Assembly (NCBI GenBank): GCA_016187225.1
Contig: JACPKC010000010.1
Location: 3,541-67,540, forward strand
Reading direction: 5' to 3'
Length of the DNA: 64,000 nt
Source: Candidatus Berkelbacteria bacterium
GTDB lineage: Bacteria > Patescibacteriota > UBA1384 > JACPKC01
A program made the position numbers and the translations under genes. Position 1 is the first letter of the stretch, and each line of letters opens with the position of its first letter. Positions 27,079 to 47,864 of the stretch are shown here, piece by piece. The notes beneath the pieces are model-generated. The model ran no database searches, was not told the origin of the DNA, and worked only from the letters and a program-made list of their open reading frames with translations.

Positions 27079-27080
27079 AT

Positions 27081-29205: not shown

Positions 29206-29826
29206 ATGAGCGAACTAAGATCGCAGATTCTTATTCCGACCGTGATTGAAAAATCCCAGTTTGGCGAACGCGCTTATGATATTTACTCGCGTCTTCTCAA
29301 AGAGCGAATCATCTTTGTTAGCGGTACGATCGAAGACTATATGGCGAATTTAATCGTTGCCCAGCTTCTCTTTTTGGAATCCGTCGATCAGAATCGCGAT
29401 ATTCAGCTTTATATCAACTCGCCCGGCGGGTCGGTAACGGCTGGGATGGCGATCTATGACACGATGGAACATATCAAGCCGCCTGTTAGCACGATCTGTG
29501 TCGGCATGGCCGCTTCAATGGGCGCATTTTTGCTCGCCGGCGGCGCCAAAAGCAAACGTTTTGCTCTACCCAATGCGAAGGTGATGATTCATCAGGTCAT
29601 GGGCGGCGCCACTGGCCAGGCAACAGATATTAAGATTCAGGCCGAGGAGATTCTGCGCGTCAAGGCAACGATGAACAAGATTCTTTCAGAAAAAACCGGC
29701 CAGCCAATTGGTAAGATCGAAGAAGATACCGAACGCGATAAATATCTCTCGGCGGCAGAAGCTAAGGCTTACGGCCTCATCGATGATGTGATTGGAGCAG
29801 TGAGTCATGCAGATAAAAAATTGTAG
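29206..29826 (+). CDS. clpP: ATP-dependent Clp protease proteolytic subunit
   Basis: The Ser-His-Asp triad context [14 protein letters not shown] and the [18 protein letters not shown] motif are present. The RBS aaaggag lies upstream. Confidence 0.95.
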
Positions 29827-30487: not shown

Positions 30488-30517
30488 TTGACAGGACGAG
30501 CTTTCATAGCCTATACT
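30488..30517 (+). promoter_or_regulatory. Sigma70-like promoter candidate for the 16S rRNA
   Basis: TTGACA (30488-30493), an 18-bp spacer, then TATACT (30512-30517), about 245 bp upstream of the 16S 5' end. Confidence 0.55.
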
Positions 30518-30761
30518 CGCAGTTAGTGAGGTTCGAATGACCCACGAGGGTTAATAGAAGCAAAAAGCGTATGCAGATTTGCAAACGATGCAACTGCATC
30601 GTTTTTGTTTGTTACAACGGGCTTCGACTTTGAACTTTGATAATTGACGCCAGCATAACTTGGTTTTTGAATTGGTTGAAAAATGAGCCTCGCCGGTTTT
30701 AGACCGGCCGCCACTGCGAGCGTTATCGCAGATATTTGAAGTTTCAAACTTCTCTTTTTGA

Positions 30762-30796
<35 letters not shown>

Positions 30797-31042
30797 TGCG
30801 CCTAACACATGCAAGTCGAGTGGGTTTAGACCCACGGCAGACGGGTGAGTAATGGCAAGGAACGTACCACGAGGTCGGGCATAACCCGCCGAAAGGCGGG
30901 ATAATTCCCGATACGCCTCCGGGTGAAAGTTTTTCGCCTCGTGAGCGGCCTTGCTCCTATCAGCTTGTTGGTAAGGTAACGGCTTACCAAGGCTCTGACG
31001 GGTAGCTGGTCTGAGAGGACGACCAGCCACAATGGCACTGAG

Positions 31043-31074
<32 letters not shown>

Positions 31075-31075
31075 T

Positions 31076-31111
<36 letters not shown>

Positions 31112-31471
31112 GACACCGCGTGGAGGAAGACGGTCTTCGGATTGTAAACTCCTTTTCTCTGAGACGATTATGACGGTACCAGAGGAATAAGCACCGGCTA
31201 ACTACGTGCCAGAAGCCTCGGTGATACGTAGGGTGCAAGCGTTATCCGGAATTATTGGGCGTAAAGAGCTCGTAGGTGGCTTTGTTCGTTCCGTGTTAAA
31301 TCTCCAGGCTCAACTTGGAGGCCGCACGGAAGACAGCAAAGCTCGAGTCCAGCAGGGGTCAGCGGAATTGGCGGTGTAGCAGTGAAATGCGTTGATATCG
31401 CCAGGAACACCGATGGCGAAGGCAGCTGACTAGGCTGGTACTGACACTAAGGAGCGAAAGCGTGGGGAGCG

Positions 31472-31509
<38 letters not shown>

Positions 31510-31580
31510 TTGCTGACTAGGTATTCGAAGTATCGACCCTTTGTGTACCGAAGCTAACGCGTCAAGTCAGCCGCCTGGGA

Positions 31581-31622
<42 letters not shown>

Positions 31623-31623
31623 T

Positions 31624-31661
<38 letters not shown>

Positions 31662-32075
31662 AGCGAGGAACCTTACCAAGATTTGACATCTCCGGAACCC
31701 TGCAGAAACGCGGGGGTGCCCTTCGGGGAGCCGGATGACAGGTGATGCACGGTCGTCGTCAGCTCGTGTCGTGAGATGTACGGTTAAGTCCGCAAACGAG
31801 CGAAACCCTCATCCTGTGTTGTATTTCACGGGAGACTGCCTCGTTCAACGGGGAGGAAGGTGGGGATGACGCCAGATCAGCGTGTCTCTTACATCTTGGG
31901 CGACACACGTGCTACAATGGCGACAACAGCGGGTCGCAAAGCTGTAAAGCAGAGCTAATCCCTTAAATGTCGCCTCAGTTCGGATTGAGGGCTGAAACTC
32001 GCCCTCATGAAGCCGGAATCGCTAGTAAACGCAGATCAGCCATGCTGCGTTGAATACGTTCTCGAGCCTTGTACA

Positions 32076-32618
32076 AAATAGAATGCGCCATTCCTTGTCA
32101 GTGGCGAGTCCGTTCAAATCGGACCTGGCCGCCAGAGACGGTCAGAAGCGAACGCGCAGTCCTGCGGAGCGATCCACAGGGTGAAGGGTGCTAGTAGCAG
32201 TATCCAGCTTGAATTTTATAAACGGCGTGATCGGTGGACGATCCTGCGTACAATTGGAGAAGTCATCTCTGTATTTTTCCGGTCGCGTATTTGGAATCGA
32301 GATGGATGCGAATTGCACTGACAAGACAATGGGAGAGCTTATAGACTCCTCTATGTGTATTCACGTGGGGGTAGATTCATCGTAAGATGGTATCGATGGG
32401 CTATAAGCAGTCTGCAGAGTCCATAGTACCCGGAGTCTCAACAGTTGTTGAGATCGAAGGGGAAGGGACTAATCCAGCCATAAAAGGATGGAGGAACTCA
32501 AACAGTTGTGCGAACAGATTGAGTTCCTTCGGGGCTAGAGCTTCGCTAGGGTACGGGAAAACCGTGTGCCCAGCGGCGACGGAACTCATGGTAGTAATGC
32601 CTGTGCAGTATCCGGGAA
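32076..32618 (+). mobile_element. ORF-less intron-like insertion in the 16S rRNA (after the CCTTGTACA block)
   Basis: About 540 nt separate ...ccttgtaca from ...caccgcccgtcac, which are contiguous in canonical 16S. The boundaries are approximate. Confidence 0.7.
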
Positions 32619-32708
32619 CACCGCCCGTCACGTGAGCCGAGTTGGTAATACCCAAAGTCCCACTTTTGTGGGCCGACGGTAGGATCAGTAAGGAGCACGA
32701 AGTCGTAA

Positions 32709-33430
32709 AATTGTTGCGACCTTGCTAGGTAACCGGCAAGAAAAACCCTGCTGTATCGGTGAAACCCCTCCTCTCTAGTAGAATAAAGATGTGAGGACAA
32801 TACCGAGGGAACCCATGCCTTCAATGGGACTCCGTAGAGACTACACGCAGGCTCCTTTGCAGGAGATTGAATCGTATCTCGTTGGCGCAAGTCACGATGG
32901 TACTTGGAATCAGCGTCACAAGACTTTTCGCTATACACAGCGAGAACGCTCTTGGCTTGAGCTGGTTCAGCGGCTACTCGGTAGCCTGAACAGACGGAGT
33001 TGGCTGTACCGTGAAGGTCAACAACGCACCGTCTGGGCACTAGAAACGACATATTGTCCTTCAGGTGACTCGTGGCACTTATTGCCACATAGTCAAATAG
33101 AATGGATTGGGTACATTCGTGGTTTCTTTGATGCTGAAGGTGGCTTACCGAAGAATGCGACAAGTCGGTTTTATTTACAATTTGTACAGAAGAACCGCAG
33201 GAAGCTCGATATAATTCGCTCGACTTTGGAGGAGTTGGACATCCCATGTGGAGCCCTTCATATACCCAGTAAGCGAGTTGATCCAAATTATTGGCGCTTT
33301 TTCGTCTCGACACGGTCACATCGAAAGTTCGCCGACGTAATTGGATCTTGGCATCCACGCAAGTCGTACATTCTCTCTGGAAGGATGAAGATATAGTCCA
33401 TGCCCTGTAGTAATATTGGGAACACCATGA
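32709..33430 (+). mobile_element. Intron in the 16S rRNA 3' region carrying a LAGLIDADG homing-endonuclease ORF
   Basis: About 720 nt are inserted between gaagtcgtaa and acaaggtatccctagggg. The boundaries are approximate. Confidence 0.75.
32791..33396 (+). CDS. LAGLIDADG homing endonuclease (intron-encoded)
   Basis: The 201-aa ORF lies inside the 16S insertion. The segment IGYIRGFFDAEGG matches the LAGLIDADG motif. Confidence 0.7.
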   Translation: MRTIPREPMPSMGLRRDYTQAPLQEIESYLVGASHDGTWNQRHKTFRYTQRERSWLELVQRLLGSLNRRSWLYREGQQRTVWALETTYCPSGDSWHLLPHSQIEWIGYIRGFFDAEGGLPKNATSRFYLQFVQKNRRKLDIIRSTLEELDIPCGALHIPSKRVDPNYWRFFVSTRSHRKFADVIGSWHPRKSYILSGRMKI

Positions 33431-33569
33431 ACAAGGTATCCCTAGGGGAATCTGGGGATGGATCACCTCCTTTCTAACGGAATTTTGAGAGCTTTGCTCT
33501 CGACCGTAGGTCGGTCTCATTTTTCAACCATTCAGCAACCAAGAGTCGTCCGGAGGGACGATTTTTGGT

Positions 33570-34052
33570 TTGAGGAGATGTGAAGTGAAATTACGCATTC
33601 GAAACGGAACAAAAATTTATTTCAACAGATGGTTCGCGGTAACGATTTTTGGGCTTCTGATTGCAAGTATTGCCATTTGGATTTTATCGAAGCCAAAATC
33701 AGCGATTCAGAGCGAAGTAGTTCAAGCCGCGGCTGAAGCACAAGCCAATATCGCGCGTGTTTTGGCGGCGCATGTTGATTGGACGAGCACCGATTTTCGC
33801 GTTGCCAACCAGGATTCAATCAACTGGCAGAGATGCAAACTCGAAGTCAATGCCGCTCAATTCGACACCGGCTATAGTGTCTTTGTCGATCAAATCAAAA
33901 TCGGTGAAACACTCGCGATTCCGCACGACAGTTTGCAAGCAAAAAACGGTGCGGTTTATAATTATTCAACCAATCCCCCTCACCGCTTTACGATTCGTTG
34001 TCAAAATGCCGACACTCGCATGGGTATCTTTATCGGTTCGGTCGCCCAGTGA
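33570..34052 (+). CDS. Hypothetical membrane-anchored protein (N-terminal TM helix plus an extracytoplasmic domain)
   Basis: 160-aa ORF about 95 bp after the 16S 3' end. It has one N-terminal TM segment, FAVTIFGLLIASIAIWIL. Confidence 0.4.
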   Translation: MRRCEVKLRIRNGTKIYFNRWFAVTIFGLLIASIAIWILSKPKSAIQSEVVQAAAEAQANIARVLAAHVDWTSTDFRVANQDSINWQRCKLEVNAAQFDTGYSVFVDQIKIGETLAIPHDSLQAKNGAVYNYSTNPPHRFTIRCQNADTRMGIFIGSVAQ

Positions 34053-34084
34053 CCCTAACAGGAGGGTGTGCTATTCTGAAAACA

Positions 34085-34486
34085 ATGAACCAAGCTCTCA
34101 AACTTGGCTGGATTAGTGTTCTCGTCTGGTGGTATCAGATTGTGCCTGGGTTGCTTGTGCATCATGCCCGGCTTTTCTTCTTGATGGTGATTGACTATTT
34201 TTCATTTGGTATTCTCGCGAGCACTCTTTTTGAGCCGTGGAAGCGCGATGAGATCTCAACGGAAAACTTAAGTTTGCAAGATAGAATTCAAGTTTTTGGC
34301 CTCAACTTAATCACTCGTTTCTTTGGTTTTCTCATGCGATCGGCCGCTATCACGGCTGGCGTCATCATCCTTCTGGCGTTGGCTTTAGTCGCTTGTTTGG
34401 TTGCCGTCTTTTGGCTTATGGCGCCCTTGCTTGCACTCATTCTCGGCGTCAATGGCATCCTGACCATCCTTGGGGGCGAGCGATGA
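34085..34486 (+). CDS. Hypothetical integral membrane protein (about 4 TM helices)
   Basis: Hydrophobic throughout. Its stop codon overlaps the ATG of the following Clp-like gene (ATGA). Confidence 0.45.
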   Translation: MNQALKLGWISVLVWWYQIVPGLLVHHARLFFLMVIDYFSFGILASTLFEPWKRDEISTENLSLQDRIQVFGLNLITRFFGFLMRSAAITAGVIILLALALVACLVAVFWLMAPLLALILGVNGILTILGGER

Positions 34487-36993
34487 TTCGTTTTGAGGGC
34501 GCGCTTGGCATTGAGCTTGCTCGACTTCAGATTCATCTTGAATCAAAATCGGCTGTTATGCTTCGATCGCTAATTATTGCCGGTGCGAGTTTTGCTCTGT
34601 TATATCTGTGTCTGACGCTTTTTAATCTCATCCCGGTCTGGCCAACTTTGTTTGGTTTCGTTGAACTGGGTTTTGGTATAGGTTTCTTATGGGGAATGCG
34701 CGAACTCTATTTGACTTGGGTATTGCATCACACCTTGCCGTCAGTTGCGCTTGCTCTGCGCACCCAGCACCCTGATTGGTTAACCACGACTAATTTTCTC
34801 GACTACGTTTCACCAGAATTGGGCAGAATTTTTTTACGAGCGCGGACTGAAGCGGGAGTTCAAGTTGATACCTTGATTAAAGCTAGTCTTACCGAACCCG
34901 TGATCAATTCGCTCCTCGCGCGCGCCGGGTTCTTAACGCCGTTAGCCACTGAAACGGAAACTACCTCGGCGCCAAAATTGCCCGAACCGATTACCGCACC
35001 CGATGCTTTACTTGCTTACGCCGCCCAAGAAGCAATTGTGCTCAAGCAGGCAGTGATCGACGTTAATCACTTTCTCTACGTGCTCGCGGAGCATTATCAG
35101 CCGGTTGCCGATCGCTTATTTGCTCACAATCTTGAGCTCAATGATTTAGCCGAAGCGATCGCGTGGTATGAACGCCATCGCCATCGCGTTCAGCGCAGAT
35201 TCTTTTGGGAGCGGGGGAAGGTGGGTATTTATGGCATTGGTCGAGATTGGTCGGCTGGGTACACGCCTACCTTGTCGCACTTCTCGATCGATCTCGCGCG
35301 CTATCTCCAGGATGCAGACTTGCAAACACAGATCGTTGGTCGTGAGCAAGTGATCGATCAGATCGAGCAGATTTTAGCGAGTGAGACGCGCACGAACGTA
35401 CTTTTAGTTGGTCGCGTTGGCGTTGGTAAGCGCACCGTGGTGAATGGGCTCGCGGCGCGAATTGCGTCGGGCGAGGTTTCTCGCAGTTTGGCAAATAAGC
35501 ATGTCCTCGAGCTCGACGTTGCCCAAGTGTTGGCCGGACTTGGAGACAGGGGCGCGATTGAGTTTCGCTTGATGCGCGTTTTACGCGACGCCGAGCGTGC
35601 TGGCAACATCATTTTATTTGTCAATAATATCCACACCCTGCTTTCTTCGGCCTACGGCAAGGTTGGCTCGATTAACGCGGGCGAAGTACTCGCGCCGTTT
35701 TTACGCTCTGGGCGGATTCAGCTTATTGCCGCAACAACGCCAATGGACTATCACGCAATCATTGAAGCCCAGGGCACGGTGAGAGATTCTTTTCGGCGAA
35801 TCGAGGTTCAGGAACCAGCGCCAACCGAGGCGGTGATACTTGCCGAAGATGTGGCTCTTCATCTTGAAGCGCGCCACGGTGTCTTTATTGCTTTGCCGGT
35901 CATCAAAAAGGCGGTTGAGTTTGGCCATCGCTATGTGCAAGGCGCGCCTTTGCCAGAAAGTGCGCTCACGCTTTTGGAGGCGGCGGCAATTCGAGCCTCA
36001 AATGAACAACGTGAATTGGTGACGTTTGAAGATATTGATGTGGTGGTTTCGGAGCAGACACGTGTGCCGGTCGGCGAGGTTCAAATGAGCGAGAAAGCTC
36101 GCCTCTTAAATTTGGAAGATGTTTTACATGATCGCGTGATCGGCCAAGATGAGGCAATTGTGGCGGTGGCAAGCGCCTTGCGCCGAGCGCGGTCTGGCCT
36201 AGGAACCGGCAAACGACCAATTGGCAGTTTCCTTTTTTTGGGGCCGACGGGCGTTGGCAAAACCGAGACGGCGCGCGCCTTGGCGGAAACGTATTTTGGG
36301 AGTGAAAAATCAATGGTGCGCCTCGATATGAGCGAGTTTCAAAGCCCAGCCTCGCTTGCGCGATTGATTGGCGCGCCAACTGAAGCGCAACAGGCGGGGA
36401 GTGGCCAGCTTACAAGCGCGATTAAGGATGCGCCGTTCAGTCTGATCCTTCTCGATGAGGTTGAGAAATCCCATCCAAACATTCTCAACGTGTTTCTGCA
36501 GATCCTCGATGATGGCCGGGTGACTGATGGTCGAGGTGAGACCGTTGATTTCACGAACGCAATCATCATTGCGACTTCGAATGCCGGCTCCGAATTTATT
36601 CGGAGCCACATTCAGGCAGGTGAAAATATGGAACAATTGCGCGACGAACTTTTGAATGCACTTCAGAGCCAAGGTTTATTCAAGCCAGAGTTTCTTAATC
36701 GATTTGACGCAGTGGTCGCCTTCAAACCGCTTTTACCAGATCAATTGATGCAAATAGTTGATTTACAGCTTAAGGGTTTGAATGCGCGTCTGGCAGAGCA
36801 AGATGTGCAAATTTCACTCACCGAGGCGGCTAAAAAACGCTTGGCCGAACTTGGTTATCAGCCGGAATTTGGCGCGCGAGCGTTGCGACGAGTTATGCAA
36901 GATCGAGTTGAAAACATGATTGCCTCGCGCTTGCTGGCCGGTGAAATAAAGCGTGGCCAGACCCTCGCCATCGACGCATCAGATCTTGAATGA
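34483..36993 (+). CDS. Membrane-anchored ClpB/ClpC-like AAA+ ATPase with a degenerate first nucleotide-binding domain
   Basis: The N-terminus has about 3 TM helices. NBD1 aligns to ClpB but has Walker A GRVGVGKRT and Walker B ILFVNNIH, where NN replaces DE. NBD2 is intact, with GPTGVGKTE and LILLDEVEKSHPN. The C-terminal domain is Clp-type. Confidence 0.75.
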   Translation: MIRFEGALGIELARLQIHLESKSAVMLRSLIIAGASFALLYLCLTLFNLIPVWPTLFGFVELGFGIGFLWGMRELYLTWVLHHTLPSVALALRTQHPDWLTTTNFLDYVSPELGRIFLRARTEAGVQVDTLIKASLTEPVINSLLARAGFLTPLATETETTSAPKLPEPITAPDALLAYAAQEAIVLKQAVIDVNHFLYVLAEHYQPVADRLFAHNLELNDLAEAIAWYERHRHRVQRRFFWERGKVGIYGIGRDWSAGYTPTLSHFSIDLARYLQDADLQTQIVGREQVIDQIEQILASETRTNVLLVGRVGVGKRTVVNGLAARIASGEVSRSLANKHVLELDVAQVLAGLGDRGAIEFRLMRVLRDAERAGNIILFVNNIHTLLSSAYGKVGSINAGEVLAPFLRSGRIQLIAATTPMDYHAIIEAQGTVRDSFRRIEVQEPAPTEAVILAEDVALHLEARHGVFIALPVIKKAVEFGHRYVQGAPLPESALTLLEAAAIRASNEQRELVTFEDIDVVVSEQTRVPVGEVQMSEKARLLNLEDVLHDRVIGQDEAIVAVASALRRARSGLGTGKRPIGSFLFLGPTGVGKTETARALAETYFGSEKSMVRLDMSEFQSPASLARLIGAPTEAQQAGSGQLTSAIKDAPFSLILLDEVEKSHPNILNVFLQILDDGRVTDGRGETVDFTNAIIIATSNAGSEFIRSHIQAGENMEQLRDELLNALQSQGLFKPEFLNRFDAVVAFKPLLPDQLMQIVDLQLKGLNARLAEQDVQISLTEAAKKRLAELGYQPEFGARALRRVMQDRVENMIASRLLAGEIKRGQTLAIDASDLE

Positions 36994-37439
36994 TTGACCA
37001 CTCATCTTCATTCTTTCTCTATTACCGTATACAATCATCTCGCAGCCGGAACTCCCCGTTCGATAAAAAATTTTGAGCGGGACGAGGGAGCCCGGACGAG
37101 AGGATTTTTGAGGCAGAAAATTGATCGTTGTACCTCTCATCTGCATCGCCCGCACGTCGGGCCATCGATCAATTTTCTGCCTTCCAGTAAGATTTCGGAG
37201 TTGGTTACGGGGTAAGTAACCATGTGTCTGGCGACTGTCAGACATGCGTGAAGTAGTAGACATCAGGCTATTTCACGCCTCCGATTTTTACCTAGGTCGG
37301 AATGCCGAAATAAGTATGAGTACATGTACATTGCGCTCACGGCATTTCGACCTTTCTCTCGGCCTCGTTCTCGCCACGGGGCCATTTTCTTGTTTACAGA
37401 AGGATTTTCCGCTATAGTTTTTGCGTTTAGGGCGTGTAG

Positions 37440-37516
37440 CTCAGTCGGTTAGAGCGCGTCACTGATAATGACGAGGTCCCAGGTTCGAATCCTGGCACGC
37501 CCACCAAAATCTGACT
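37440..37516 (+). tRNA. tRNA-Ile (anticodon GAU)
   Basis: A cloverleaf can be drawn with acceptor stem gggcgtg/cacgccc and anticodon loop cuGAUaa. The 3' CCA is encoded. This is the typical ITS tRNA. Confidence 0.9.
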
Positions 37517-38311
37517 TTACTCGTCATCCTTCTGGAGTTCGAGGCCGAGGTCGCTGAGAAACTCCTCGATCAGTCGGGCCGAACTCTCTCCGACGCCAAA
37601 CACTTCTCTTAGTGCTTTTGGAGTGTAGGTGTCGGCAAGGACACGGAGAGTCGCATCCGGAGCATTGTTCCAGAGTGGTGGTCTGTTTCTTTCCCAATCT
37701 ATAGATGTTTCACATTGCCTAGGAATTTGAAGAGCAAAGGCGAGTGGGCCAAATATCTTCAGTTTTTTTACGACGTCTAGAATGCTTTCATCCAGCATCT
37801 GAATGTCAGCTTCAGCCGAGTAGAAGTTTGAGGCGGACGGAATTCGTCCGATCTCTACCTTATCCTTTGCTCGATCTCTGAGGTATCTTGATATTCCCGC
37901 ATGCTTTAGTTTGATACCATTGAATACTAATCTTTTTATTCTCCGTAGTCTGCTCACACTCATCCCTTTTATGCGAAGCAGGTCGGTAGCGCTTGTTTCT
38001 AGAAGCTGCTGAATGGTGTAAATGCCACCATCTTGCAGTACTCGGATCATATTTCTTCTGCAAGTATCGGGGTAGCCAGGTAAAGTTGAGTCTTCTAGTA
38101 ACAAGGTTGGTGGAGTTACTTTGTCCCAAGCCACCCTCGCCAGGACAAAAACCACTCCATCTACTCGTTGATTATACTGGATGGTAAAGTAGTGGTCTTC
38201 TGGATTAGCTCCCAGGAACACCTCTATCGCTTTGGATAGATCCTCCACTTCGCCGACTGAAGCTATGACCTCGAACCTTGGCTGGTTGTCAGGGTTACAT
38301 TGAGATTCCAC
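37517..38311 (-). CDS. Hypothetical DNA-binding protein with two helix-hairpin-helix motifs (RNA polymerase alpha-CTD-like)
   Basis: TIQQLLETSATDLLRIKGMSVSRLRRIKRLV and the C-terminal LADTYTPKALREVFGVGESSARLIEEFL resemble HhH motifs. The gene abuts the tRNA-Ile 3' end in convergent orientation. Confidence 0.4.
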   Translation of the reverse strand: MESQCNPDNQPRFEVIASVGEVEDLSKAIEVFLGANPEDHYFTIQYNQRVDGVVFVLARVAWDKVTPPTLLLEDSTLPGYPDTCRRNMIRVLQDGGIYTIQQLLETSATDLLRIKGMSVSRLRRIKRLVFNGIKLKHAGISRYLRDRAKDKVEIGRIPSASNFYSAEADIQMLDESILDVVKKLKIFGPLAFALQIPRQCETSIDWERNRPPLWNNAPDATLRVLADTYTPKALREVFGVGESSARLIEEFLSDLGLELQKDDE

Positions 38312-38420
38312 GTTGATTTCCTCCTATTGAAAAATAATTTTTCAAAGAACTAGTCAATTTATACCAGAAACTCTTCGATTTGTTAACAACTTAGGTAAGA
38401 ACTTACGCTATACTCAAATT

Positions 38421-38894
38421 GTGTTATTGACACCACATATTTTGGTCGGTGCAACTGTTGGCGTCGTTGCCCAAGATCCAGTAGTTGGGTTTCTTGGTGG
38501 AGTTGCGAGCCACTTCGTTTTGGATGCAATTACGCACACCGATCCGGGTACTTGGCACTTCGATGAGCCATTTCCTCAAAAACTCGACGAACGTGATCTG
38601 ACAGTTGGTTTTACCGATGCAGCGGTCGCGTTCTTTAGTTTTCTGCTTTTAGCCGGCGTCGCGCCCCTCGTTGCGCCAGGCCCACTCGCAGGCGCTCTCG
38701 GTGGTTTGTTACCCGATGTGATTGGTCTTGCCCCGCTTTTTATACCTAAACTCGCGACCGTCAAGGGGCTCGACCGTTACTATGCCTTTACTCACCGCAT
38801 TCATCGCACGGCGCCGCCTTCAAAATGGCTACTTGGCATTTTCACGCAAATTATTGTGATAGGATTTGCCGTATGGTACTTGCTCGGCTCATAG
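38421..38894 (+). CDS. Hypothetical membrane protein, possibly related to DUF457 metal-dependent hydrolases
   Basis: 157 aa with a hydrophobic core. SHFVLDAITH loosely resembles the DUF457 His/Asp motif. Confidence 0.35.
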   Translation: MLLTPHILVGATVGVVAQDPVVGFLGGVASHFVLDAITHTDPGTWHFDEPFPQKLDERDLTVGFTDAAVAFFSFLLLAGVAPLVAPGPLAGALGGLLPDVIGLAPLFIPKLATVKGLDRYYAFTHRIHRTAPPSKWLLGIFTQIIVIGFAVWYLLGS

Positions 38895-39124
38895 TATTTA
38901 TGCTAACTTTCGGTGTCGGGCTTGGGTTGATTCGGAGCGCCGAGTGGTGTGTGCGCAATTTCGGCACGATGGACTGGGCGGAAAAACATCTGGGCCCTGG
39001 CGGCAGTTATTCTGCTTGGAAACTTTTTGGGGTGATTACGATTATTCTAGGATTCCTCTACGCAATCGGGCAGTTCAATGTTACGCCACAGGATGCAGGG
39101 ATACTCTCAACTGCGCCTTAACCA

Positions 39125-39200
39125 GGGCCAGTAGCTCATCTGGCAGAGCGCCACATTTGCAATGTGGAGGTACGGGGTTCGAATCCCCGCTGGTCCACCA
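39125..39200 (+). tRNA. tRNA-Ala (anticodon UGC)
   Basis: The acceptor stem gggccag/ctggtcc includes the G3:U70 Ala identity pair. The anticodon loop is uuUGCaa. CCA is encoded. Confidence 0.9.
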
Positions 39201-39291
39201 AAATCTGACTTTCAGAAAATTGACCGGCGCGATTTTTTCTAGAGTTATGATAAGATTATTTCACATTGAAATAACCAGAGAGGAGATATTA

Positions 39292-39510
39292 ATGACTCTT
39301 ACGAAAGAAGATTTAAAAGAACTTCGATCGATTGTGAAAGAAGAAGTATCCAACGGAATTGGAATGACCGAAGGGCGGTTGAATGACAAAATCGAAACTT
39401 CCGAAGGGCGGTTGAATGACAAAATCGAAACTTCCGAAGGGCGGTTGAATGACAAAATCGAAACTTCCGAAGGGCGGTTGAATGACAAAATCGAAACAAA
39501 CTTCTATTGA
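39292..39510 (+). CDS. Small protein with four tandem 11-aa repeats (TSEGRLNDKIE)
   Basis: The track ORF continues upstream to 38866. Met at 39292 follows an RBS-like gagagg, with ATG 10 nt downstream. The repeats are encoded by the 33-bp tandem array. Confidence 0.45.
   Translation: MTLTKEDLKELRSIVKEEVSNGIGMTEGRLNDKIETSEGRLNDKIETSEGRLNDKIETSEGRLNDKIETNFY
39368..39496. repeat. 33-bp tandem repeat of about 3.9 copies (ccgaagggcggttgaatgacaaaatcgaaactt)
   Basis: The copies are perfect except for the last few nt of copy 4. The array lies in the coding frame of 39292-39510. Confidence 0.9.
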
Positions 39511-39805
39511 ACAGTCAAAAAATGAAATCATCTCCATTTTGAGTCGAGAGATTAACGATTTAGCCGAGATTAATCATGCGATCATTGAGCGAGTGGACAA
39601 AATTTCGGAGCTCGAAAAACGGATTATTCGAATTGAGAATAAGGTCGGCATAGCCGGTTGATTTTGATGTGCTCCTCGATATCGCCTCCATAGAACTGAT
39701 ATCGATCTCGAATCTAATGAGTTTAATCGGCTCTTTCATCTCACTTATAATAAACGGGAGGTAAAGAAGAGCCAGAAAATTTATCAACTCCTCAACCCAT
39801 CAGTA

Positions 39806-40027
39806 ATGAGTCGGTTAATTGATGCTCGTTATGAGTTGGGTAAATTTGAACTCCTGTTCCGCGATCGAATCATGCTCATAAGCGTGCCCAACATGCTCGA
39901 TTTAAAATATACTAATTTTAAGAAAAAAATCGAGATCGACCATCGAGATATTACTATCGTACAGGATGAATTGGAAAAGCTACTTCATTATGTGGGTGAC
40001 ATCGTTCCAAAACTTGACCGACCATAA
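39806..40027 (+). CDS. Hypothetical protein
   Basis: 73-aa ORF with no recognisable motif. Confidence 0.25.
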   Translation: MSRLIDARYELGKFELLFRDRIMLISVPNMLDLKYTNFKKKIEIDHRDITIVQDELEKLLHYVGDIVPKLDRP

Positions 40028-40088
40028 ATACTTGACATCCATGAGAGAGAGGTAGGATTCAATTAGAATGAGTTGAATAAGGGGGAAT

Positions 40089-40790
40089 ATGAAAGAAGAG
40101 CAAGGGCTTTGGGGAAAATTACGGTTGCTTTATACGAATCCACGTGAATTCTGGCAGTCAGTCGGTCAAGACCATAACATTCGTACTCCACTTATTTTAT
40201 GGTTCTTCCTATCTCTCCTGCCGATCATTTTGCTGGGCGCGTTCATGCTTACATTGGGTAACGCTGATGCATCTCGCTATTATTCTCTGATTGCGCTCCT
40301 CTTCATTGTTGTGTCCTTTATTGGTTTGTTCATGAATAGCACCGGCCTCTATTTTGGAGCCAAAGCCTTCAATGGCACGGGAAGTTTTACGCAGACTTTG
40401 AAAATCTACGTATATTCCACGCTTGCACCTTTTCTTCCTGCCTTCTTTATTACTCTTTTATTCATATTTTTCCTGTTTTTGATTGATCGGGGGAATGAGT
40501 CTGCTACGTTCTCGCCGCTTGTCGTAGGGACTATGATGCTTATTCCTGCCCTAGGCATCCTCATCTACCAAATCGTACTCATTGTCCGAGGACTCGAGGT
40601 TGTCCATACGCTTTCGAATGGCAAGGCAATCTTAGCCTGGCTCCTTGGATTGGTCTTGACGTCAATAGTGTCCAGTATGGTGGCGCCGGTTGTGGGTATT
40701 CCACTGGCTGGCTTTCTTGCAGATTCGATTGAGTCTTCCTCCACATCTAATCCGGAAACATCCCAACTAGAACAAGAATTCTCAATGTAG
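40089..40790 (+). CDS. Yip1-domain-like integral membrane protein
   Basis: 233 aa with about 5 TM helices. The N-terminal soluble segment followed by a multi-TM core resembles Yip1/YIF1-type proteins. Confidence 0.4.
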   Translation: MKEEQGLWGKLRLLYTNPREFWQSVGQDHNIRTPLILWFFLSLLPIILLGAFMLTLGNADASRYYSLIALLFIVVSFIGLFMNSTGLYFGAKAFNGTGSFTQTLKIYVYSTLAPFLPAFFITLLFIFFLFLIDRGNESATFSPLVVGTMMLIPALGILIYQIVLIVRGLEVVHTLSNGKAILAWLLGLVLTSIVSSMVAPVVGIPLAGFLADSIESSSTSNPETSQLEQEFSM

Positions 40791-40826
40791 GGCTCCTGTG
40801 CTAAACGCTAACTATCAGGCGTAATA

Positions 40827-40860
40827 CAAAACACACCGGCCAGAGCCGGTGTGTTTTGTT
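40827..40860. terminator. Bidirectional rho-independent terminator between convergent genes
   Basis: The hairpin aaaacacaccggc-caga-gccggtgtgtttt has A/T runs on both sides. Confidence 0.7.
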
Positions 40861-40873
40861 GTTGTTTAGTGGA

Positions 40874-41269
40874 TCAGTTGACTGCAAGGATCATGCCCAT
40901 CACTACGAGCGTGAGTAGTTGATTACCATTATTGATTAGCCACAAATCCCATGATCGGTCTTCCCAGGCGGTGTTCATTAAAGAATATGTGGCGACGAAA
41001 CCAAGCCAAATCCAAAATCCAAGCAGGGCGCCCTCGCCAAGCGTATTTGCCTGTTTATATTCGATGAAGTAGGCAAAGATATATGCCGTTATGAATGCCG
41101 CCGCGATACTCGCAACGTAGCTCGCGCTGGCGCCAGAAAGATTACTTTTTTTATTGCCGATCGCCTTCATCCAGGATTCAGTGAAGACTCCATACCAGGT
41201 CGCGCCAATTACAACTGCGGCCGCCGCGGCCATGACGATCGCCCATAGATTGACAGAGACTTCAGACAT
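40874..41269 (-). CDS. DUF1761-like small membrane protein
   Basis: About 130 aa with 4 TM helices and conserved Trp/Gly positions (WMKAIG, FWIWLGFVATY). The start is taken at MSEVSVNLW. Confidence 0.45.
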   Translation of the reverse strand: MSEVSVNLWAIVMAAAAAVVIGATWYGVFTESWMKAIGNKKSNLSGASASYVASIAAAFITAYIFAYFIEYKQANTLGEGALLGFWIWLGFVATYSLMNTAWEDRSWDLWLINNGNQLLTLVVMGMILAVN

Positions 41270-41367
41270 AAAATTTCTCTCCTTCTTCTTTTTAAAGTGT
41301 AAAGAATGAAGAATAAAGAGTAAAGAATACATTTATTACTCGACAAGTTCTGGCTAAGAGTGTCAAA

Positions 41368-42132
41368 ATGCAAATTATGGATTATTCTCGGATTTTTGTT
41401 ACTGGCGCTTCGAGCGGAATTGGCGCCGCGCTGGCGCGCGCGTATGCCCGACCGAATATAATTCTTGGTTTGGCGGCGCGCCGCGTTGAAAAACTTAAAG
41501 CGGTCGCTCAGGACATTCGAGATCGTGGCGCCCAAGCGTATATTTATGAACTCGATATAACGGATATCGATGCAACTGAATGCGTCGCCCAAAAATTTGT
41601 AAAAAGTGCGGGCGGGATTGATTTAGTGATTGCTAATGCCGGCATTGGCGGCTGGGCGCATCCAGTTCAAACCGATCCGAGAAAATTAACTACGATTATC
41701 AACACGAACGTGAACGGGGTTATTAACACGGTCGGGGCGTTTTTGCCGTCAATGGTGGCCGCGCGGCGCGGTCACCTGGCTGTTTTGAGTTCAATCGCCG
41801 GTTTTAGGGGTCTGCCCGGCGGAGTCTATTCGGCTTCAAAGGTTGCCATTCGTTATATGTTGAATGGTTGGCGATTTGATCTCAAGCCTTACAATATCCA
41901 TGTTACAACTCTTTATCCGGGTTTTGTTGAAACCGAGATGACGGGGAGTAAGCGTTGGTATCCATTTTTAATCAGCGCCGATCAGGCGGCGGTTGAAATA
42001 AAACGGGCGATTCAGCAAAAGAAAGCACATTGGGTTTTTCCTTGGCCATGGCGTTTGATCGTGCCGATTTTGCGGATTTTGCCAGGCGTTTTAATTCGCA
42101 GGCCAGTTCGTTCGCTTTCGAACCGTAAATAA
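41368..42132 (+). CDS. Short-chain dehydrogenase/reductase (SDR)
   Basis: The cofactor motif is TGASSGIG. The catalytic motif is YSASKVA (YxxxK). The NAG-like motif is IANAGIG. Confidence 0.85.
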   Translation: MQIMDYSRIFVTGASSGIGAALARAYARPNIILGLAARRVEKLKAVAQDIRDRGAQAYIYELDITDIDATECVAQKFVKSAGGIDLVIANAGIGGWAHPVQTDPRKLTTIINTNVNGVINTVGAFLPSMVAARRGHLAVLSSIAGFRGLPGGVYSASKVAIRYMLNGWRFDLKPYNIHVTTLYPGFVETEMTGSKRWYPFLISADQAAVEIKRAIQQKKAHWVFPWPWRLIVPILRILPGVLIRRPVRSLSNRK

Positions 42133-42146
42133 TTTACAATTATGAT

Positions 42147-42599
42147 ATGCAGATTAAGAGTTCAGCTTTTGAGAATAATGGCTCCATTCCTAGGCAGTAT
42201 ACTTGCCAGGGAGAAAGTTTAAGCCCGCCACTTACAATTAACGATGTGCCAGTTGAGGTGAAAAGTTTAGCTTTGATTATGGAAGATCCAGATGTGCCGC
42301 GTTCAATTCGCCCCGATGGCATGTGGGATCACTGGGTGATTTGGAATGTCGATCCAAAAACAGTTGAAATTTTGGAAGGCATCGAACCCAAAGGAGTGTA
42401 TGGCCAGACAACCTCAAATACTCAAAAATACGTCGGTCCCTGCCCACCAGATCGCGAACATCGCTATTTCTTCAAGCTTTACGCGCTTGATGCTAAATTA
42501 ACTCTCACGCCAGGGAGTTCAAAACGTCAACTTGTCTCGGCGATGCAGGGGCATATCTTGACTACTGCGACCCTGATTGGTCGCTATAAGAAATTTTAG
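42147..42599 (+). CDS. YbhB/YbcL-family phosphatidylethanolamine-binding-like protein (PEBP)
   Basis: The segments DHWVIWNV...GP.PP...HRYFFKLYALD match the bacterial PEBP signature. Confidence 0.8.
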   Translation: MQIKSSAFENNGSIPRQYTCQGESLSPPLTINDVPVEVKSLALIMEDPDVPRSIRPDGMWDHWVIWNVDPKTVEILEGIEPKGVYGQTTSNTQKYVGPCPPDREHRYFFKLYALDAKLTLTPGSSKRQLVSAMQGHILTTATLIGRYKKF

Positions 42600-43537
42600 C
42601 CCAACCGCTTGACAACCCCTCAAAACATCGGTAGAAATATAAATAGGCATGAGTGTTAACCCAACAACTTGGAGGAAACGCGCGGTCTAGGCTCACCACT
42701 TTTTGGTGTTTTTCCGCCGCGGTCGGCGGTTTTTTATGTCCGATGGCCTGCTGTCCTGAAGTAAATATTTCGGAGAGCTGGTGATCAGCCGAACTTTCAC
42801 AATATGGTTCTAAAAGTGAAGTGGCAATCACACCGAGAAAATTATGGGAATCGTATTGAGCAAAGAGCTTCTGCGGTTCTCCGGATACATTAAGGGCGTA
42901 TGGTGGATGCCTTGGGAGAAGAAGCCGACGAAGGACGTAGCGGGCTGCGATAAGCTTCGGGGAGGTGCCGAGCAACCTTTGATCCGAAGATGTCCGAATG
43001 GGGAAACCTTCCTGCTTGAAGAGCAGGAGACGTCAGGTTTGCTCCCCCACAGTAATTCCACCGTCAGATCCAGACACTAACGGATCGTACGACGGTTTTT
43101 AAAGCGGATTCACTGTGGAGGGGCAAACCTGATGTCGGGCACCTGGGGAACTGAAACATCTTAGTACCCAGAGGAAGAGAAAACAAAACACTCTGTTTTG
43201 AGTGAAATTTTATGATGGATTTCAGAATCGGATGTAGGTGTTCGTTTATCACGGATTCCGACCTCCGTTTTCTGTCATCCGTCCTCTGAAATTTGTGATT
43301 CCGCTAGTAGCGGCGAGCGAACGCGGACCAGCCTTGCGACGGGATGGCAAAAATGAATAGCTGAATGCTCCTGGAACGGACAGCCAAAGAGGGTGAGAGA
43401 CCCGTAAGCGAAATTCTTTTTTGTTCTGAACGTTGCCGTTTTGTTCTTTAATTTGAGCAAAATGCAAGTACATCGAGACACGTGAAATCTCGATGGAAGA
43501 CCGGTGGATCATCATCGAAGGCTAAATACTTCTTCTC

Positions 43538-45444: not shown

Positions 45445-45485
45445 AGCGCCCAATAGTCCACATAGACGGCGCTGTTTGGCACCTT

Positions 45486-46306
45486 AACATTGGGGTGCTG
45501 CAGGAGTAATTCTGTACCAAAAATGTGGCTTATAACGGTGAACCCCCACTCTTTACAGTGGTACAATGAAGTAAAGAAGGGCGATACCGTGGGAAGTCTG
45601 ACCTCAATCCAACACGCGATTTTGGTAGGAAGTATGCTAGGCGATGGTACACTACGCAAACAAGGCGCAAGAAAGAACGCCTTATTTGAAGTGAACCATT
45701 CAGTCAAGTTTAAAACCTATGTTGATTGGAAGTGGAAACACTTTCAAGAGTATGTTTTAACACCACCAAAATCACGCCTCGGTAAAGGCGTTCGTGTTGC
45801 GTATCGGTTTACGACTCGTAGCCTTCCGATTTTTACCAGTTATTACCGCTGGTTTTACCCAAATCAGAAGAAACAGCTTCCAGATAATATTAAGCTAGAT
45901 GCCAAAGGTTTGGCAGTTTGGTTTATGGATGATGGAACACGATGTCGGAATGCAACCTATTTCAATACCCAGCAGTTTCGCATCGCAGAGCAATGTCTCT
46001 TGCGGCGGCAACTAAAGAAGATTGGAATTAGGTCGACATTAAGTCGAGATAAGCAGTATTGGCGTTTATACGTTGATACTGAAAGCACGAAAAGACTAAT
46101 GCAAATTATTAGCCCTTACGTTTTATCTTGCTTCCAATACAAATTGAGATATGACCCCGTAACGACTGAGTCGAAAGACGAGATTTCGAACGCAAGTTCG
46201 AGATAACACGCCACCTCCTATTTTGTCAGCTAGACATGGCTTAGGCCTCTGTCTAGTAATAGGAAGAAGATATAGTCTGCACCATATGTAAATATGGATT
46301 AAAGTA
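45486..46306 (+). mobile_element. Intron in the 23S rRNA domain V (after GTTTGGCACCT)
   Basis: About 820 nt separate gtttggcacct from cgatgtcggctcatc, which are contiguous in canonical 23S. It contains ORF 45490-46206. Confidence 0.75.
45490..46206 (+). CDS. Double-motif LAGLIDADG homing endonuclease (intron-encoded)
   Basis: Two motifs are present: [10 protein letters not shown] and AVWFMDDGT. The true start is probably an internal codon. Confidence 0.7.
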
Positions 46307-46399
46307 CGATGTCGGCTCATCCTATCCTGGGGCTGAAGCAGGTCCCAAGGGTTTAGTTGTTCACTAATTAAAAGGGTACGCGAGCTGGGTTCAGAACGT

Positions 46400-47170
46400 A
46401 AATTACATTGCGCTCTACTCTTGAAATGGAGTAGGATACGGGTGCACATCGCACACAACCGACCCAACCCGTCGGTTACCGTATCAACATCTGACTAAAA
46501 TCGGTGAAACCCAATCACCAACGACCAAACGTTGGAAAGGGCAATACCGAGGGAAGATCAGGTCGTGACGAACGAAGAGAAAGCCTACATAGCGGGATTT
46601 TTAGATGGTGATGGTTGCATTATGGCGCAGTTGGTTCGTCGAAAAGATTACATTTTTGGCTACCAAGTGCGGACAAGCATTGTCTTTTACCAGAATCAGA
46701 CTCACCAAGAGATCCTTTCTTGGCTCAAATCGATGCTAGATATTGGCTACATCCGTCAGCGGAATGACGGTATGGCTGAATACACCATCGTTGGATTGCG
46801 TGACGTGCGACACATTGTTGCACTGTTGCTTCCGTTCCTTCGTCTCAAACAGGAATTAGCACAACTGATCATTCACTTGATTGATTCGTATCCAGCCACC
46901 ATGACGCCAAACGAACTCGTTCGTCTTGGCAGACTGGTAGATGCGACGGCAGCGTTCTCGTATTCAAAACGACGAACGAATACCGTTGCGACTGTGATCG
47001 ATTTCCTGCACCAACACGATCTTTTCCCCGTAGAGACTTCGACTACTCGCAAGAATGGTAGTCGGGATTCCTCGTAGGCGAGGGATAATACGTCAGCCCC
47101 TCCTTTGGATTATTTCTTCCAAAGAGGGTGAAGATATAGTCCGTGCCACCAGGAATGGTGGAACAACACG
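46400..47170 (+). mobile_element. Second intron in the 23S rRNA domain V (after AGAACGT)
   Basis: About 770 nt separate gggttcagaacgt from cgtgagacagtttggtcc. It contains ORF 46532-47077. Confidence 0.75.
46532..47077 (+). CDS. LAGLIDADG homing endonuclease (intron-encoded)
   Basis: YIAGFLDGDGCI matches the LAGLIDADG motif. The 181-aa ORF lies wholly inside the insertion. Confidence 0.7.
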   Translation: MERAIPREDQVVTNEEKAYIAGFLDGDGCIMAQLVRRKDYIFGYQVRTSIVFYQNQTHQEILSWLKSMLDIGYIRQRNDGMAEYTIVGLRDVRHIVALLLPFLRLKQELAQLIIHLIDSYPATMTPNELVRLGRLVDATAAFSYSKRRTNTVATVIDFLHQHDLFPVETSTTRKNGSRDSS

Positions 47171-47347: not shown

Positions 47348-47519
47348 GGCCCCAAGATTAGGTTTCTTTAAGACCCGTCGGAGATTACGACGTTGATAGG
47401 CTCGAGGTGGAAGGCGCGTAAGCGTTGGAGCCGTAGAGTACTAATGGTCGCAGTATTCGGAGAACCGCAGAGGTTCGTTGATCGTGGTGATCGCTACTTC
47501 ACATAATTTAGCTAGAGTG

Positions 47520-47650: not shown

Positions 47651-47673
47651 AAAGACGCGTTTGCGTCTTTTTT
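47651..47673 (+). terminator. Rho-independent terminator of the rRNA operon
   Basis: The hairpin aaagacgc-gttt-gcgtcttt is followed by TTT directly after the 5S gene. Confidence 0.8.
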
Positions 47674-47708: not shown

Positions 47709-47864
47709 ATGCATTGGATCACACTTATCCTCGGTATTTGGGTTTTTATCTCGCCGTGGCTTCTAGGTTTCTCCGACAACGCCGCTGGACTTTGGAGCAA
47801 TATTCTGGCGGGGCTTATTTTGGTCATAGTCTCAATTTATGGACTCTCAAATACGGAGTCATAA
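47709..47864 (+). CDS. SPW-repeat small membrane protein
   Basis: The motif WITLILGIWVFISPWLLGF (W..G.W....SPW) is typical of the SPW repeat family. The RBS aaggagg lies 7 nt upstream of the ATG at 47709. Confidence 0.55.
   Translation: MHWITLILGIWVFISPWLLGFSDNAAGLWSNILAGLILVIVSIYGLSNTES

Follow-up and report, generated by a model that had tools for sequence, protein, structure and literature searches.

In a 64,000-nucleotide (nt) stretch of a Candidatus Berkelbacteria genome (Patescibacteriota, UBA1384; contig JACPKC010000010.1, positions 3,541 to 67,540; hereafter the window), the 16S and 23S ribosomal RNA (rRNA) genes lie more than 9 kb apart, with protein-coding genes and two transfer RNA (tRNA) genes between them. 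This raises the question of whether the locus is still read as one rRNA (rrn) operon, has been recently invaded by foreign DNA, results from an erroneous assembly, or represents an inherited arrangement of another kind. Comparing the window with loci fetched from distant and close relatives (numbered up to L055), we found the evidence to favour a genuine, vertically inherited and dispersed rRNA cluster, most probably expressed as several transcription units and no longer as a single operon.

All five RNA genes occupy the plus strand in the ancestral order 16S, tRNA-Ile, tRNA-Ala, 23S, 5S:

30755-33475, plus strand: 16S rRNA with two insertions, its three exons contiguous against the intron-free 16S of L045 and L055
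37430-37506, plus strand: tRNA-Ile(GAT), called by Rfam and ARAGORN
39125-39200, plus strand: tRNA-Ala(TGC), called by Rfam and ARAGORN
42883 to ~47455, plus strand: 23S rRNA with two group-I-like introns, its exons contiguous in L052
47519-47635, plus strand: 5S rRNA, with a terminator after it at ~47653-47672

Rfam located both tRNAs, the 5S and the starts of the bacterial small (30755) and large (42883) subunit genes. The ends that it proposed for the 16S (32119) and the 23S (45532) were rejected, being misplaced because both genes carry insertions, and a motif search together with the intron-free relatives was used instead. The 16S 3'-end (anti-Shine-Dalgarno) motif GGATCACCTCCTT at 33460-33472 sets the end of this gene at ~33475. 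Combined with the Rfam 23S 5' end, this defines a 16S-23S spacer of 9407 nt (33476-42882), in close agreement with the ~9.4 kb (33476-42884) proposed by the initial annotation. The 23S and 5S genes are still adjacent, separated by ~63 nt.

Besides the two tRNA genes, the spacer holds 12 protein open reading frames (ORFs), ten of them on the plus strand (lengths below in amino acids, aa):

33585-34052, plus strand: TM1, a 155-aa membrane protein with homologues in L044, L045, L046 and L055
34049-34486, plus strand: TM2, a 145-aa membrane protein, directly 5' of the Clp-like gene in ~25 loci
34483-36993, plus strand: Clp/Hsp100-type double AAA+ ATPase, 836 aa (Pfam AAA_2, 4e-49; ClpB_D2-small, 2e-24)
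37517-38311, minus strand: 264-aa gene, with an HHH_5 match over one 35-residue stretch scoring 22.7 bits (E = 1.4e-4; Pfam cut-off 27)
38421-38894, plus strand: TM3, a 157-aa membrane protein with an invariant His and Asp, found between tRNA-Ile and tRNA-Ala in relatives
38873-39121, plus strand: TM4, a small membrane protein whose stop codon lies 3 nt 5' of tRNA-Ala
39292-39661, plus strand: coiled-coil repeat gene with a perfect 33-nt tandem repeat in 3.9 copies (39368-39497)
39806-40027, plus strand: 73-aa ORF, G+C 0.38
40089-40790, plus strand: Yip1-domain membrane protein (Pfam, 2.5e-17)
40874-41269, minus strand: DUF1761 protein (Pfam, 7.7e-29), with homologues 3' of tRNA-Ala in L044 and L050
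41368-42132, plus strand: short-chain dehydrogenase/reductase (SDR; 2.8e-44), with a homologue beside DUF1761 in L044
42147-42599, plus strand: PEBP / YbhB-YbcL family protein (2.1e-38)

The at least one dozen coding ORFs on both strands announced initially are thus found, as are the Ile-GAU and Ala-UGC tRNAs, which ARAGORN places 1619 nt apart (1.6 kb in the earlier description). The Clp-like, Yip1, DUF1761, SDR and PEBP labels are upheld by the family matches listed above, and the helix-hairpin-helix (HhH) label of the 264-aa minus-strand gene is weak, its HHH_5 score lying under the Pfam threshold.

The first line of evidence on how this locus is expressed comes from the signals distributed along it, called by consensus and by conservation in relatives from the sequence only. 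The elements themselves and their conservation are observed; from them we infer promoter firing, terminator efficiency and RNA processing.

30488-30517, plus strand: 16S promoter-like site TTGACA-18-TATACT, 11 of 12 consensus positions matched
30583-30604, plus strand: 16S leader hairpin and T-run, ~95 nt 3' of the promoter-like site; AACGATGC....GCATCGTTTTT in L055 and L045
30632-30648, plus strand: 16S leader motif GAACTTTGATAATTGAC (CTTTGAnAA), with counterparts GCTTGAAAAC in L055 and GTTGAAAAT in L045
30672-30690 pairing with 33515-33531, plus strand: 16S processing stem between leader and trailer, -71.2 kcal/mol against -44.7 +/- 5.0 for shuffled sequences
33538-33569, plus strand: intrinsic terminator after the 16S, 14-bp hairpin (-21.5 kcal/mol) and T-run
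37361-37383, plus strand: terminator-like hairpin ending TM1-TM2-Clp, -13.8 kcal/mol; GC hairpins with T7 in L048, L050 and L044
37390-37418, plus strand: tRNA-Ile promoter-like site TTGTTT-17-TATAGT, ending 11 nt 5' of the tRNA
40826-40859, both strands: bidirectional terminator, a perfect 15-bp inverted repeat (-26.2 kcal/mol) between convergent genes
42609-42637, plus strand: 23S promoter-like site TTGACA-17-TAGAAA; TTGACA-17-TACGAT at the same aligned position in L052, where the upstream gene is unrelated
42714-42729, plus strand: 23S leader hairpin and T6, ~105 nt 3' of the promoter-like site; GCCGC....GCGGTTTTT in L052
42791-42807, plus strand: 23S leader motif GAACTTTCACAATATGG, with CCTTGAAAAGC at the aligned position in L052
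42867-42887 pairing with 47453-47473, plus strand: 23S processing stem, -59.5 kcal/mol against -33.4 +/- 3.9 for shuffled sequences

Followed from 5' to 3', these elements would delimit six units. The first would run from the promoter through the leader, the 16S and its processing stem to the intrinsic terminator. L055 and L045 share its -35 block GGTGTTGACAG without change, the site lying 276-289 nt 5' of the 16S in all three genomes. The trailer motif CAACCATTGAGCAACCAA of the stem is kept in six of six Berkelbacteria, and a GC hairpin with a T-run stands at the same place 3' of the 16S, again in all six. The second unit would comprise TM1, TM2 and the Clp-like gene, whose stop and start codons overlap, and would end at the hairpin 37361-37383. 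Its transcription may rely on polymerase passing the 16S terminator, because no promoter is visible upstream of TM1 in the window, the two candidates (33670 and 33933) both lying inside TM1; TTGAC elements follow the 16S terminator in L055, L045 and L044. A third unit would be tRNA-Ile, transcribed from its own promoter 11 nt upstream. The -10 element recurs 11-14 nt before the tRNA in 6/6 Berkelbacteria (TATACT in five, TATAGT in the window) and is preceded by a terminator, with CCCGTTGA at the -35 position in three relatives and a hairpin with a T-run 3' of the tRNA in three relatives.

The fourth putative unit joins TM3 and TM4 to tRNA-Ala. The TM4 stop codon abuts the tRNA gene without room for a promoter, so that tRNA-Ala would have to be excised from the 3' end of the messenger RNA (mRNA). 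In five Berkelbacteria relatives the position of this stop ranges from a 10-nt overlap to 26 nt before the tRNA. TATACT occurs just 5' of TM3 in the window, L055 and L045; a sigma-70-type -35 element for a TM3 promoter was looked for there and not found. The fifth would consist of the cargo genes between tRNA-Ala and the 23S, one of them antisense, and of the strong bidirectional terminator, which had already been noticed at 40827-40860 and is confirmed as a perfect 15-bp hairpin of -26 kcal/mol. The sixth would combine a separate promoter and leader with the 23S, the 5S and the final terminator. In its leader, the hairpin and T6 are followed by GAACTTTCACAAT (CCTTGAAAAGC in L052), and its processing stem differs from that of L052 by one compensatory and two wobble changes, counted by eye. 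For both rRNAs the pairing of flanks is specific: cognate leader and trailer pair at z values of about -5 and -7 relative to shuffles, and non-cognate combinations remain near background.

Both rRNA leaders share one layout, with a hairpin and T-run ~95-105 nt 3' of the TTGACA site and ~150 nt 5' of the mature rRNA. Close relatives keep the leader hairpin, as does L013, a more distant one; none was detected in L014/L016 and L009. Its possible roles are those of a boxB-like element and of an attenuator. Aligning the two rRNA leaders directly with MAFFT was uninformative beyond hinting at a common ACTTTCA motif. The 23S hairpin is what the initial annotation had described as an internal terminator at 42705-42730. 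The hairpin and T6 are real, and its insulating role is not retained: it stands 3' of the TTGACA site conserved in L052, inside the probable 23S transcript, which makes a leader element likelier than a barrier to upstream read-through.

The rival that survives best, although improbable, is that of one long rrn operon, in which Nus/boxA-type antitermination would carry transcription from the 16S promoter through to the 5S, and RNase III, RNase P and RNase Z would cut the precursor. The five RNA genes and ten of the twelve protein genes do share one orientation, in the ancestral order, the stretch from the 16S terminator to TM1 shows no promoter, and both leaders bear motifs (CTTTGAnAA in the 16S leader) that we take to resemble the boxA antitermination element. 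Moreover, canonical spacers also hold 23S leader elements, so that boxA and a stem alone do not prove a separate promoter. Such a transcript would nevertheless have to cross two antisense genes, the perfect 15-bp GC-rich bidirectional terminator and the conserved intrinsic terminators after the 16S and after the Clp-like gene, and in relatives too, tRNA-Ile and the 23S leader each have a promoter-like element directly 5' of them. Spacers of relatives reach 18.7 and 26.3 kb and contain two-component systems and a surface protein of ~2,500 aa, which are unlikely to be expressed at rRNA levels. Measured against a canonical rrn operon, the locus has the expected gene order and strand but not the short, gene-free spacer devoid of internal promoters and terminators. 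The separate transcription of 16S and 23S suggested initially is accordingly the option that these signals favour, although promoter activity and termination are predicted here.

The second line of evidence comes from relatives. Distant ones were sought by scanning GTDB species representatives and JGI metagenomes for the Clp-like protein, and their loci were annotated with blastn, tblastn, ARAGORN and Rfam. The scan returned 39 loci, at 35-46% identity except for one 256-residue fragment at 59%, and none of them showed a 23S within 10 kb. Close relatives were reached by exact-protein look-ups of the TM3, endonuclease Q (EndoQ) and Clp homologues. The order 16S, TM2, Clp, tRNA-Ile, TM3, TM4, tRNA-Ala recurs in the distant L014/L016, L018 and L024, and is kept with an inverted tRNA-Ala in L003 and L023. 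It is rearranged in L002 (16S, tRNA-Ile, TM3, TM4, TM2, Clp, tRNA-Ala) and in L001, L009 and L022, where some tRNAs are inverted. The 16S of the distant loci with this block is 76-81% identical to that of the window, which indicates that the 16S-proximal half of the spacer is old. Altogether, the block occurs, intact or rearranged, in more than 15 Patescibacteria loci (Clp identity 37-59%, 16S identity 76-92%), and by these sequence comparisons TM2 with Clp and TM3 with TM4 are old residents common to distant Patescibacteria.

In the close relatives (16S 89-92% identical to the window), all contigs of sufficient length read 16S, (TM1), TM2, Clp, tRNA-Ile, TM3, TM4, tRNA-Ala, with the trigger factor (tig) and clpP genes upstream in L045 and L055. 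No 23S was found in the 6.5-9.7 kb that these contigs extend downstream of tRNA-Ala. Conversely, L051-L054 carry the 23S and/or the 5S followed by SPW, endonuclease Q and YdjM genes. Both ends meet in JBMNRW010000002.1, a 107-kb contig that corresponds to L055 and L052 merged through a 1043-nt identical overlap, and whose 16S is 90% identical to that of the window. It reads tig, clpP, 16S, TM1, TM2, Clp, tRNA-Ile, TM3, TM4, tRNA-Ala, 13.7 kb of other genes, 23S, 5S, EndoQ, YdjM, Fpg, giving an 18.7-kb spacer with both outer flanks collinear with the window. The rrn organisation of relatives thus displays the same outer flanks and the spacer tRNAs, and not the unrelated flanks considered as an alternative in the initial annotation.

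What varies is the interval between tRNA-Ala and the 23S. Its 13.7 kb in L055/L052 encode a methyltransferase, a FeeM-like acyltransferase, a histidine kinase, a response regulator and a 2,536-aa surface protein. L044 has DUF1761 (minus strand) and SDR (plus strand) 3' of tRNA-Ala as in the window, and further downstream genes for DUF1761 and SDR occur in L050 and L048, respectively. No counterpart of the repeat gene, the 73-aa ORF, the Yip1 or the PEBP gene was found in the fetched relatives. From these comparisons the cluster appears inherited, and the tRNA-Ala-to-23S interval a zone of gene turnover among close relatives.

This distribution bears directly on a second rival, namely that mobile DNA entered the spacer recently and repeatedly in this genome alone, which we regard as very unlikely. 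It would account for the 37517-38311, repeat, 73-aa, Yip1 and PEBP genes, which lack counterparts in the fetched relatives, for the low G+C of the repeat gene and the 73-aa ORF (z -2.5 to -3.2, the only AT-rich spacer genes), and possibly for repeated sequences around the tRNAs, described below, that could be recombination scars. Yet ~5.7 of the 9.4 kb belong to the old block that Patescibacteria of different classes have in common, relatives too carry DUF1761 and SDR 3' of tRNA-Ala, and most spacer genes have native composition (G+C z within +/-1.1 relative to 35 other genes of the window). Pfam gave no transposase or integrase match among the 12 spacer proteins, and PHROGs no meaningful phage-family match for the five spacer proteins compared, leaving a mobile-element origin of the lineage-specific genes unsupported. 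The repeated invasion of the spacer proposed by the initial annotation therefore stands insofar as genes are intercalated at several points; much of it is ancient, as TM2-Clp and TM3-TM4 show, and only the tRNA-Ala-23S cargo and the 37517-38311 gene look lineage-specific.

A wrong join of a 16S contig to a 23S contig from another organism or genome part is extremely improbable: although rRNA and tRNA genes are classic break and mis-join points of metagenome assemblies and the contigs of a second assembly break at both tRNAs, leaving 39226-39470 uncovered, the 16S/TM1 and PEBP/23S junctions are both reproduced at 100% identity in independent Logan assemblies, the joins between Clp, tRNA-Ile, TM3, TM4 and tRNA-Ala recur by synteny in many relatives, both outer flanks are present on the 107-kb contig of a relative, where 18.7 kb separate 16S from 23S, and G+C and a monotonic GC skew run uninterrupted across the locus. 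The Logan assemblies SRR12113424 and SRR12113420 match 31999-37466, 37457-39225, 39471-42923 and 41635-43006 at 99.9-100%, and since both rRNA junctions are found in independent assemblies, the mis-join envisaged initially is not the cause of the split locus. TM3, the Clp-like ATPase and the endonuclease Q homologue after the 5S each show 100% identity to proteins encoded on a 320,597-bp contig of a Candidatus Berkelbacteria metagenome-assembled genome.

Several observations weigh against a dispersed cluster of separate units as set out here. TM1 starts ~16 nt past the T-run of the 16S terminator without a visible upstream promoter, which makes some 16S read-through into TM1, and hence partial co-transcription, plausible. 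A promoter scan of the whole region returned 14 sites against 19.8 expected from shuffles; the 23S -10 element (TAGAAA) is poor, and the 23S leader could be compared in two genomes only. The hairpin and T-run 3' of both rRNA promoter-like sites are also uncomfortable, because efficient termination there would require the promoter calls or the model to be revised. As for continuity, the linkage of tRNA-Ala to the 23S is comparable in a single relative, contiguity across 39226-39470 relies on one metagenome-assembled genome without coverage by a second assembly, and the join at tRNA-Ile relies on an overlap of only 10 nt (37457-37466) between two Logan contigs.

Under the favoured reading of a dispersed, inherited cluster, old insertions would have placed TM2 and the membrane-anchored Clp-like ATPase after the 16S, and TM3 and TM4 between the tRNAs. 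A bolder extension, which we consider doubtful, is that TM2-Clp and TM3-TM4 have resided in the rrn locus since before several Patescibacteria classes split because they are expressed through the transcription and processing of rRNA and tRNA. The Clp operon would then be fed by 16S read-through, tRNA-Ala would come obligatorily from the TM3-TM4 mRNA, and the matching leaders of the unlinked 16S and 23S genes (promoter, hairpin with T-run, boxA-like motif) would act as paired attenuators balancing both rRNAs although these are not co-transcribed.

Among the resident genes, the Clp-like protein has an N-terminal membrane segment and falls well below the NCBIfam equivalog cut-offs for ClpB (TIGR03346, 539 vs 1232 bits) and ClpA (TIGR02639, 491 vs 993 bits). 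Its annotation at NCBI is that of an ATP-dependent Clp protease ATP-binding subunit; on its sequence, it is a divergent Clp/Hsp100-type double AAA+ ATPase and not a certified ClpB or ClpA. It was considered as a possible ClpP partner in a split cluster of the tig-clpP-clpX type; inspection by eye revealed no ClpP-docking tripeptide of the IGF/VGF type in it. Trigger factor (27069-28283) and ClpP (29206-29826) are encoded just 5' of the 16S and the Clp-like ATPase just 3' of it. The order tig, clpP, 16S ... Clp is also seen in L002, L045 and L055, the 16S lying within a tig-clpP-clp ATPase-like neighbourhood. In L009 (10001-13231) the Clp-like gene matches in two pieces ~1.2 kb apart, and the endonuclease Q gene is likewise split by ~1.2 kb in L030, L032, L034 and L039; these interruptions could be inteins or introns in protein genes.

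Pfam gave no match for TM1. For TM3, a YdjM-type (PF04307) or zinc-dependent phospholipase-C-like hydrolase assignment was tried and rejected (Pfam E 0.03-0.7, with 0.72 for PF04307; hhalign 1.2% against the YdjM of the window). L048 (5524-6487) carries TM3 as a tandem duplicate of two 158-aa copies, followed by TM4 and tRNA-Ala. The 264-aa minus-strand gene separates tRNA-Ile from TM3, two genes that are adjacent in most close relatives (one extra gene lies between them in L048). Without a homologue in the 55 fetched loci and without a PHROG or NCBIfam match, it looks specific to this lineage.

An identical 15-nt trailer (CCA followed by AAATCTGACTTT) lies at the end of both tRNAs (37504-37518 and 39198-39212) and is absent from the nine relatives checked. 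The motif CAGAAAATTGAyCG occurs three times (37114-37127, 37166-37179 and 39213-39226, the last directly 3' of the tRNA-Ala trailer). In the intergenic region between the Clp-like gene and tRNA-Ile, which is unusually long, it makes up a 20-nt inverted repeat (37111-37130 / 37163-37182). Together, the repeated trailer and this motif may be the scar of the rearrangement that introduced the 37517-38311 gene. Within the cargo, the coiled-coil gene is frameshifted in the window at 39494-39497, with a stop at 39510; the Logan contig L040 lacks these 4 nt (AAAC) and has an ORF extending to 39661, the difference being either an assembly error or a real polymorphism.

Downstream of the cluster, a 51-aa SPW-repeat membrane protein gene (47710-47865) lies between the 5S and the endonuclease Q gene, at the same place as in L051-L054. 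The endonuclease Q family gene itself (47987-49318) is directly 3' of the 5S. A second group of loci (L008, L029-L034, L036, L038 and L039) has a Clp-like gene without nearby rRNA, with tRNA-Arg(CCG) and an endonuclease Q homologue 5' of it. Clp and EndoQ are thus neighbours in both layouts, a possible clue to the rearrangement of these genes and of the rRNA cluster. Over positions 1-64000, cumulative GC skew climbs near-monotonically and nearly all long ORFs are on the plus strand; a strong strand bias of the same kind has been reported for the Microgenomates genome Ch65 (PMC7143001).

The insertions within the rRNA genes have their boundaries fixed by the head-to-tail alignment of the exons to intron-free relatives. 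Exon 1 of the 16S ends with TGTACA (32075), exon 2 extends from CACCGCCCGTC (32619) to AAGTCGTAA (~32708), and exon 3 from CAAGGTA (~33432) to 33475. The first insertion (~32076-32618, 543 nt, at about Escherichia coli position 1395) is group-II-like, with Rfam D1-D4 matches from two models at 32163-32468; neither an ORF nor a full group II intron was found in it. The second (~32709-33431) is a group I intron (Intron_gpI 32697-33420, 43 bits) with a LAGLIDADG_3 ORF (32791-33396). In the 23S, intron 1 (~45485-46306) holds a LAGLIDADG_2 ORF (45490-46206), and intron 2 (~46400-47170, Intron_gpI match 46390-47162) a LAGLIDADG_1 ORF (46532-47077). These insertions, absent from relatives, place the window in the class known from the Candidate Phyla Radiation (CPR), with large group-I-like, LAGLIDADG-coding insertions and a group-II-like one in the 16S. 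Large insertions in CPR 16S and 23S genes, often group-I-like with LAGLIDADG homing endonucleases, are attributed to Brown et al. 2015 in the passages of PMC8172020 that treat them. The catalogue of rRNA insertions of Tsurumaki et al. 2024 (PMC11270868) reports group-II-like insertions in the 16S and LAGLIDADG_3 ORFs confined to the 16S, and the window agrees with it on both points.

Separated 16S and 23S genes also occur in other bacteria. In Borrelia burgdorferi, which has a small genome, kilobases separate the 16S from the 23S-5S genes on one strand; tRNA-Ala, tRNA-Ile and protein genes occupy the interval, and the transcripts are separate. It differs in belonging to another phylum, in its intervening genes, in its tandemly duplicated 23S-5S and in its intron-free rRNA. 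Helicobacter pylori also transcribes its 16S separately from the 23S-5S, the mechanism proposed here for the window. Its rRNA genes are scattered and not collinear in one locus, and that system was demonstrated experimentally, whereas separate units are predicted from sequence in our case. The rrs-rrl arrangement of B. burgdorferi is cited as a decoupled case in PMC8172020. Iost et al. 2019 (PMC6582327) study the maturation of the atypical H. pylori rRNA precursors, the usual case being cleavage by RNase III of stems flanking the 16S and the 23S.

Within Patescibacteria, Brewer et al. (10.1101/705046; ISME J 2020) defined unlinked rRNA genes by a 16S-23S distance above 1,500 bp and found them common and phylogenetically conserved, naming Patescibacteria among the clades in which unlinked genes predominate; with 9,407 bp, the window falls in this category. 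Their survey deals with distance only, and the window adds spacer content, retained tRNAs and flank collinearity. Lui et al. 2021 (PMC8172020), in the passages and table consulted, report unlinked genes in 27 of 34 closed CPR genomes (~80%) and mention that spacers contain proteins and tRNAs. As type D, "unlinked by distance", they class loci whose rRNA genes all share a strand and are separated by more than 2,000 bp and by opposite-strand genes, so that one promoter cannot serve both. The window has this configuration, with 16S, 23S and 5S on the plus strand, minus-strand genes in between and adjacent 23S and 5S. For a UBA1384 (Berkelbacteria) genome, their S1 Table gives a 16S-23S distance of 26,291 bp and a 23S-5S distance of 60 bp. 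With that entry counted, the 9.4 kb of the window is the shortest of three Berkelbacteria values now known (9.4, 18.7 and 26.3 kb). Those same passages and table offer categories and distances, and no account of gene content, of conserved synteny or of promoters and terminators. Closest in content is Microgenomates Ch65 (CP047901; Kadnikov et al. 2020, PMC7143001), whose single cluster reads 16S, trnI-GAU, two protein genes, trnA-UGC, 23S, 5S and includes a LAGLIDADG intron in the 23S. It resembles the window in this intron and in the two protein genes between the spacer tRNAs, and differs from it in the 16S-trnI and trnA-23S intervals, for which no genes are reported.

The split locus is therefore real and a further example of a documented CPR trait, and its value is incremental. 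New, and not found published in the literature searched, are the collinear Berkelbacteria series with fixed flanks, the antiquity of TM2-Clp and TM3-TM4, the conserved candidate signals for each unit and the tight junction between mRNA and tRNA-Ala, none of which should surprise a specialist.

Co-transcription of 16S and 23S is the textbook route to balanced ribosomal subunits, and CPR bacteria, which have a single rRNA copy in very small genomes, largely abandon it. The graded series of gaps (9.4, 18.7 and 26.3 kb) offers a convenient test of how unlinked rRNAs are coordinated and of the stepwise break-up of an operon. In practice, rRNA finders misplace gene ends on account of the introns, and long-read amplicon methods spanning the 16S, the internal transcribed spacer (ITS) and the 23S would probably miss these organisms.

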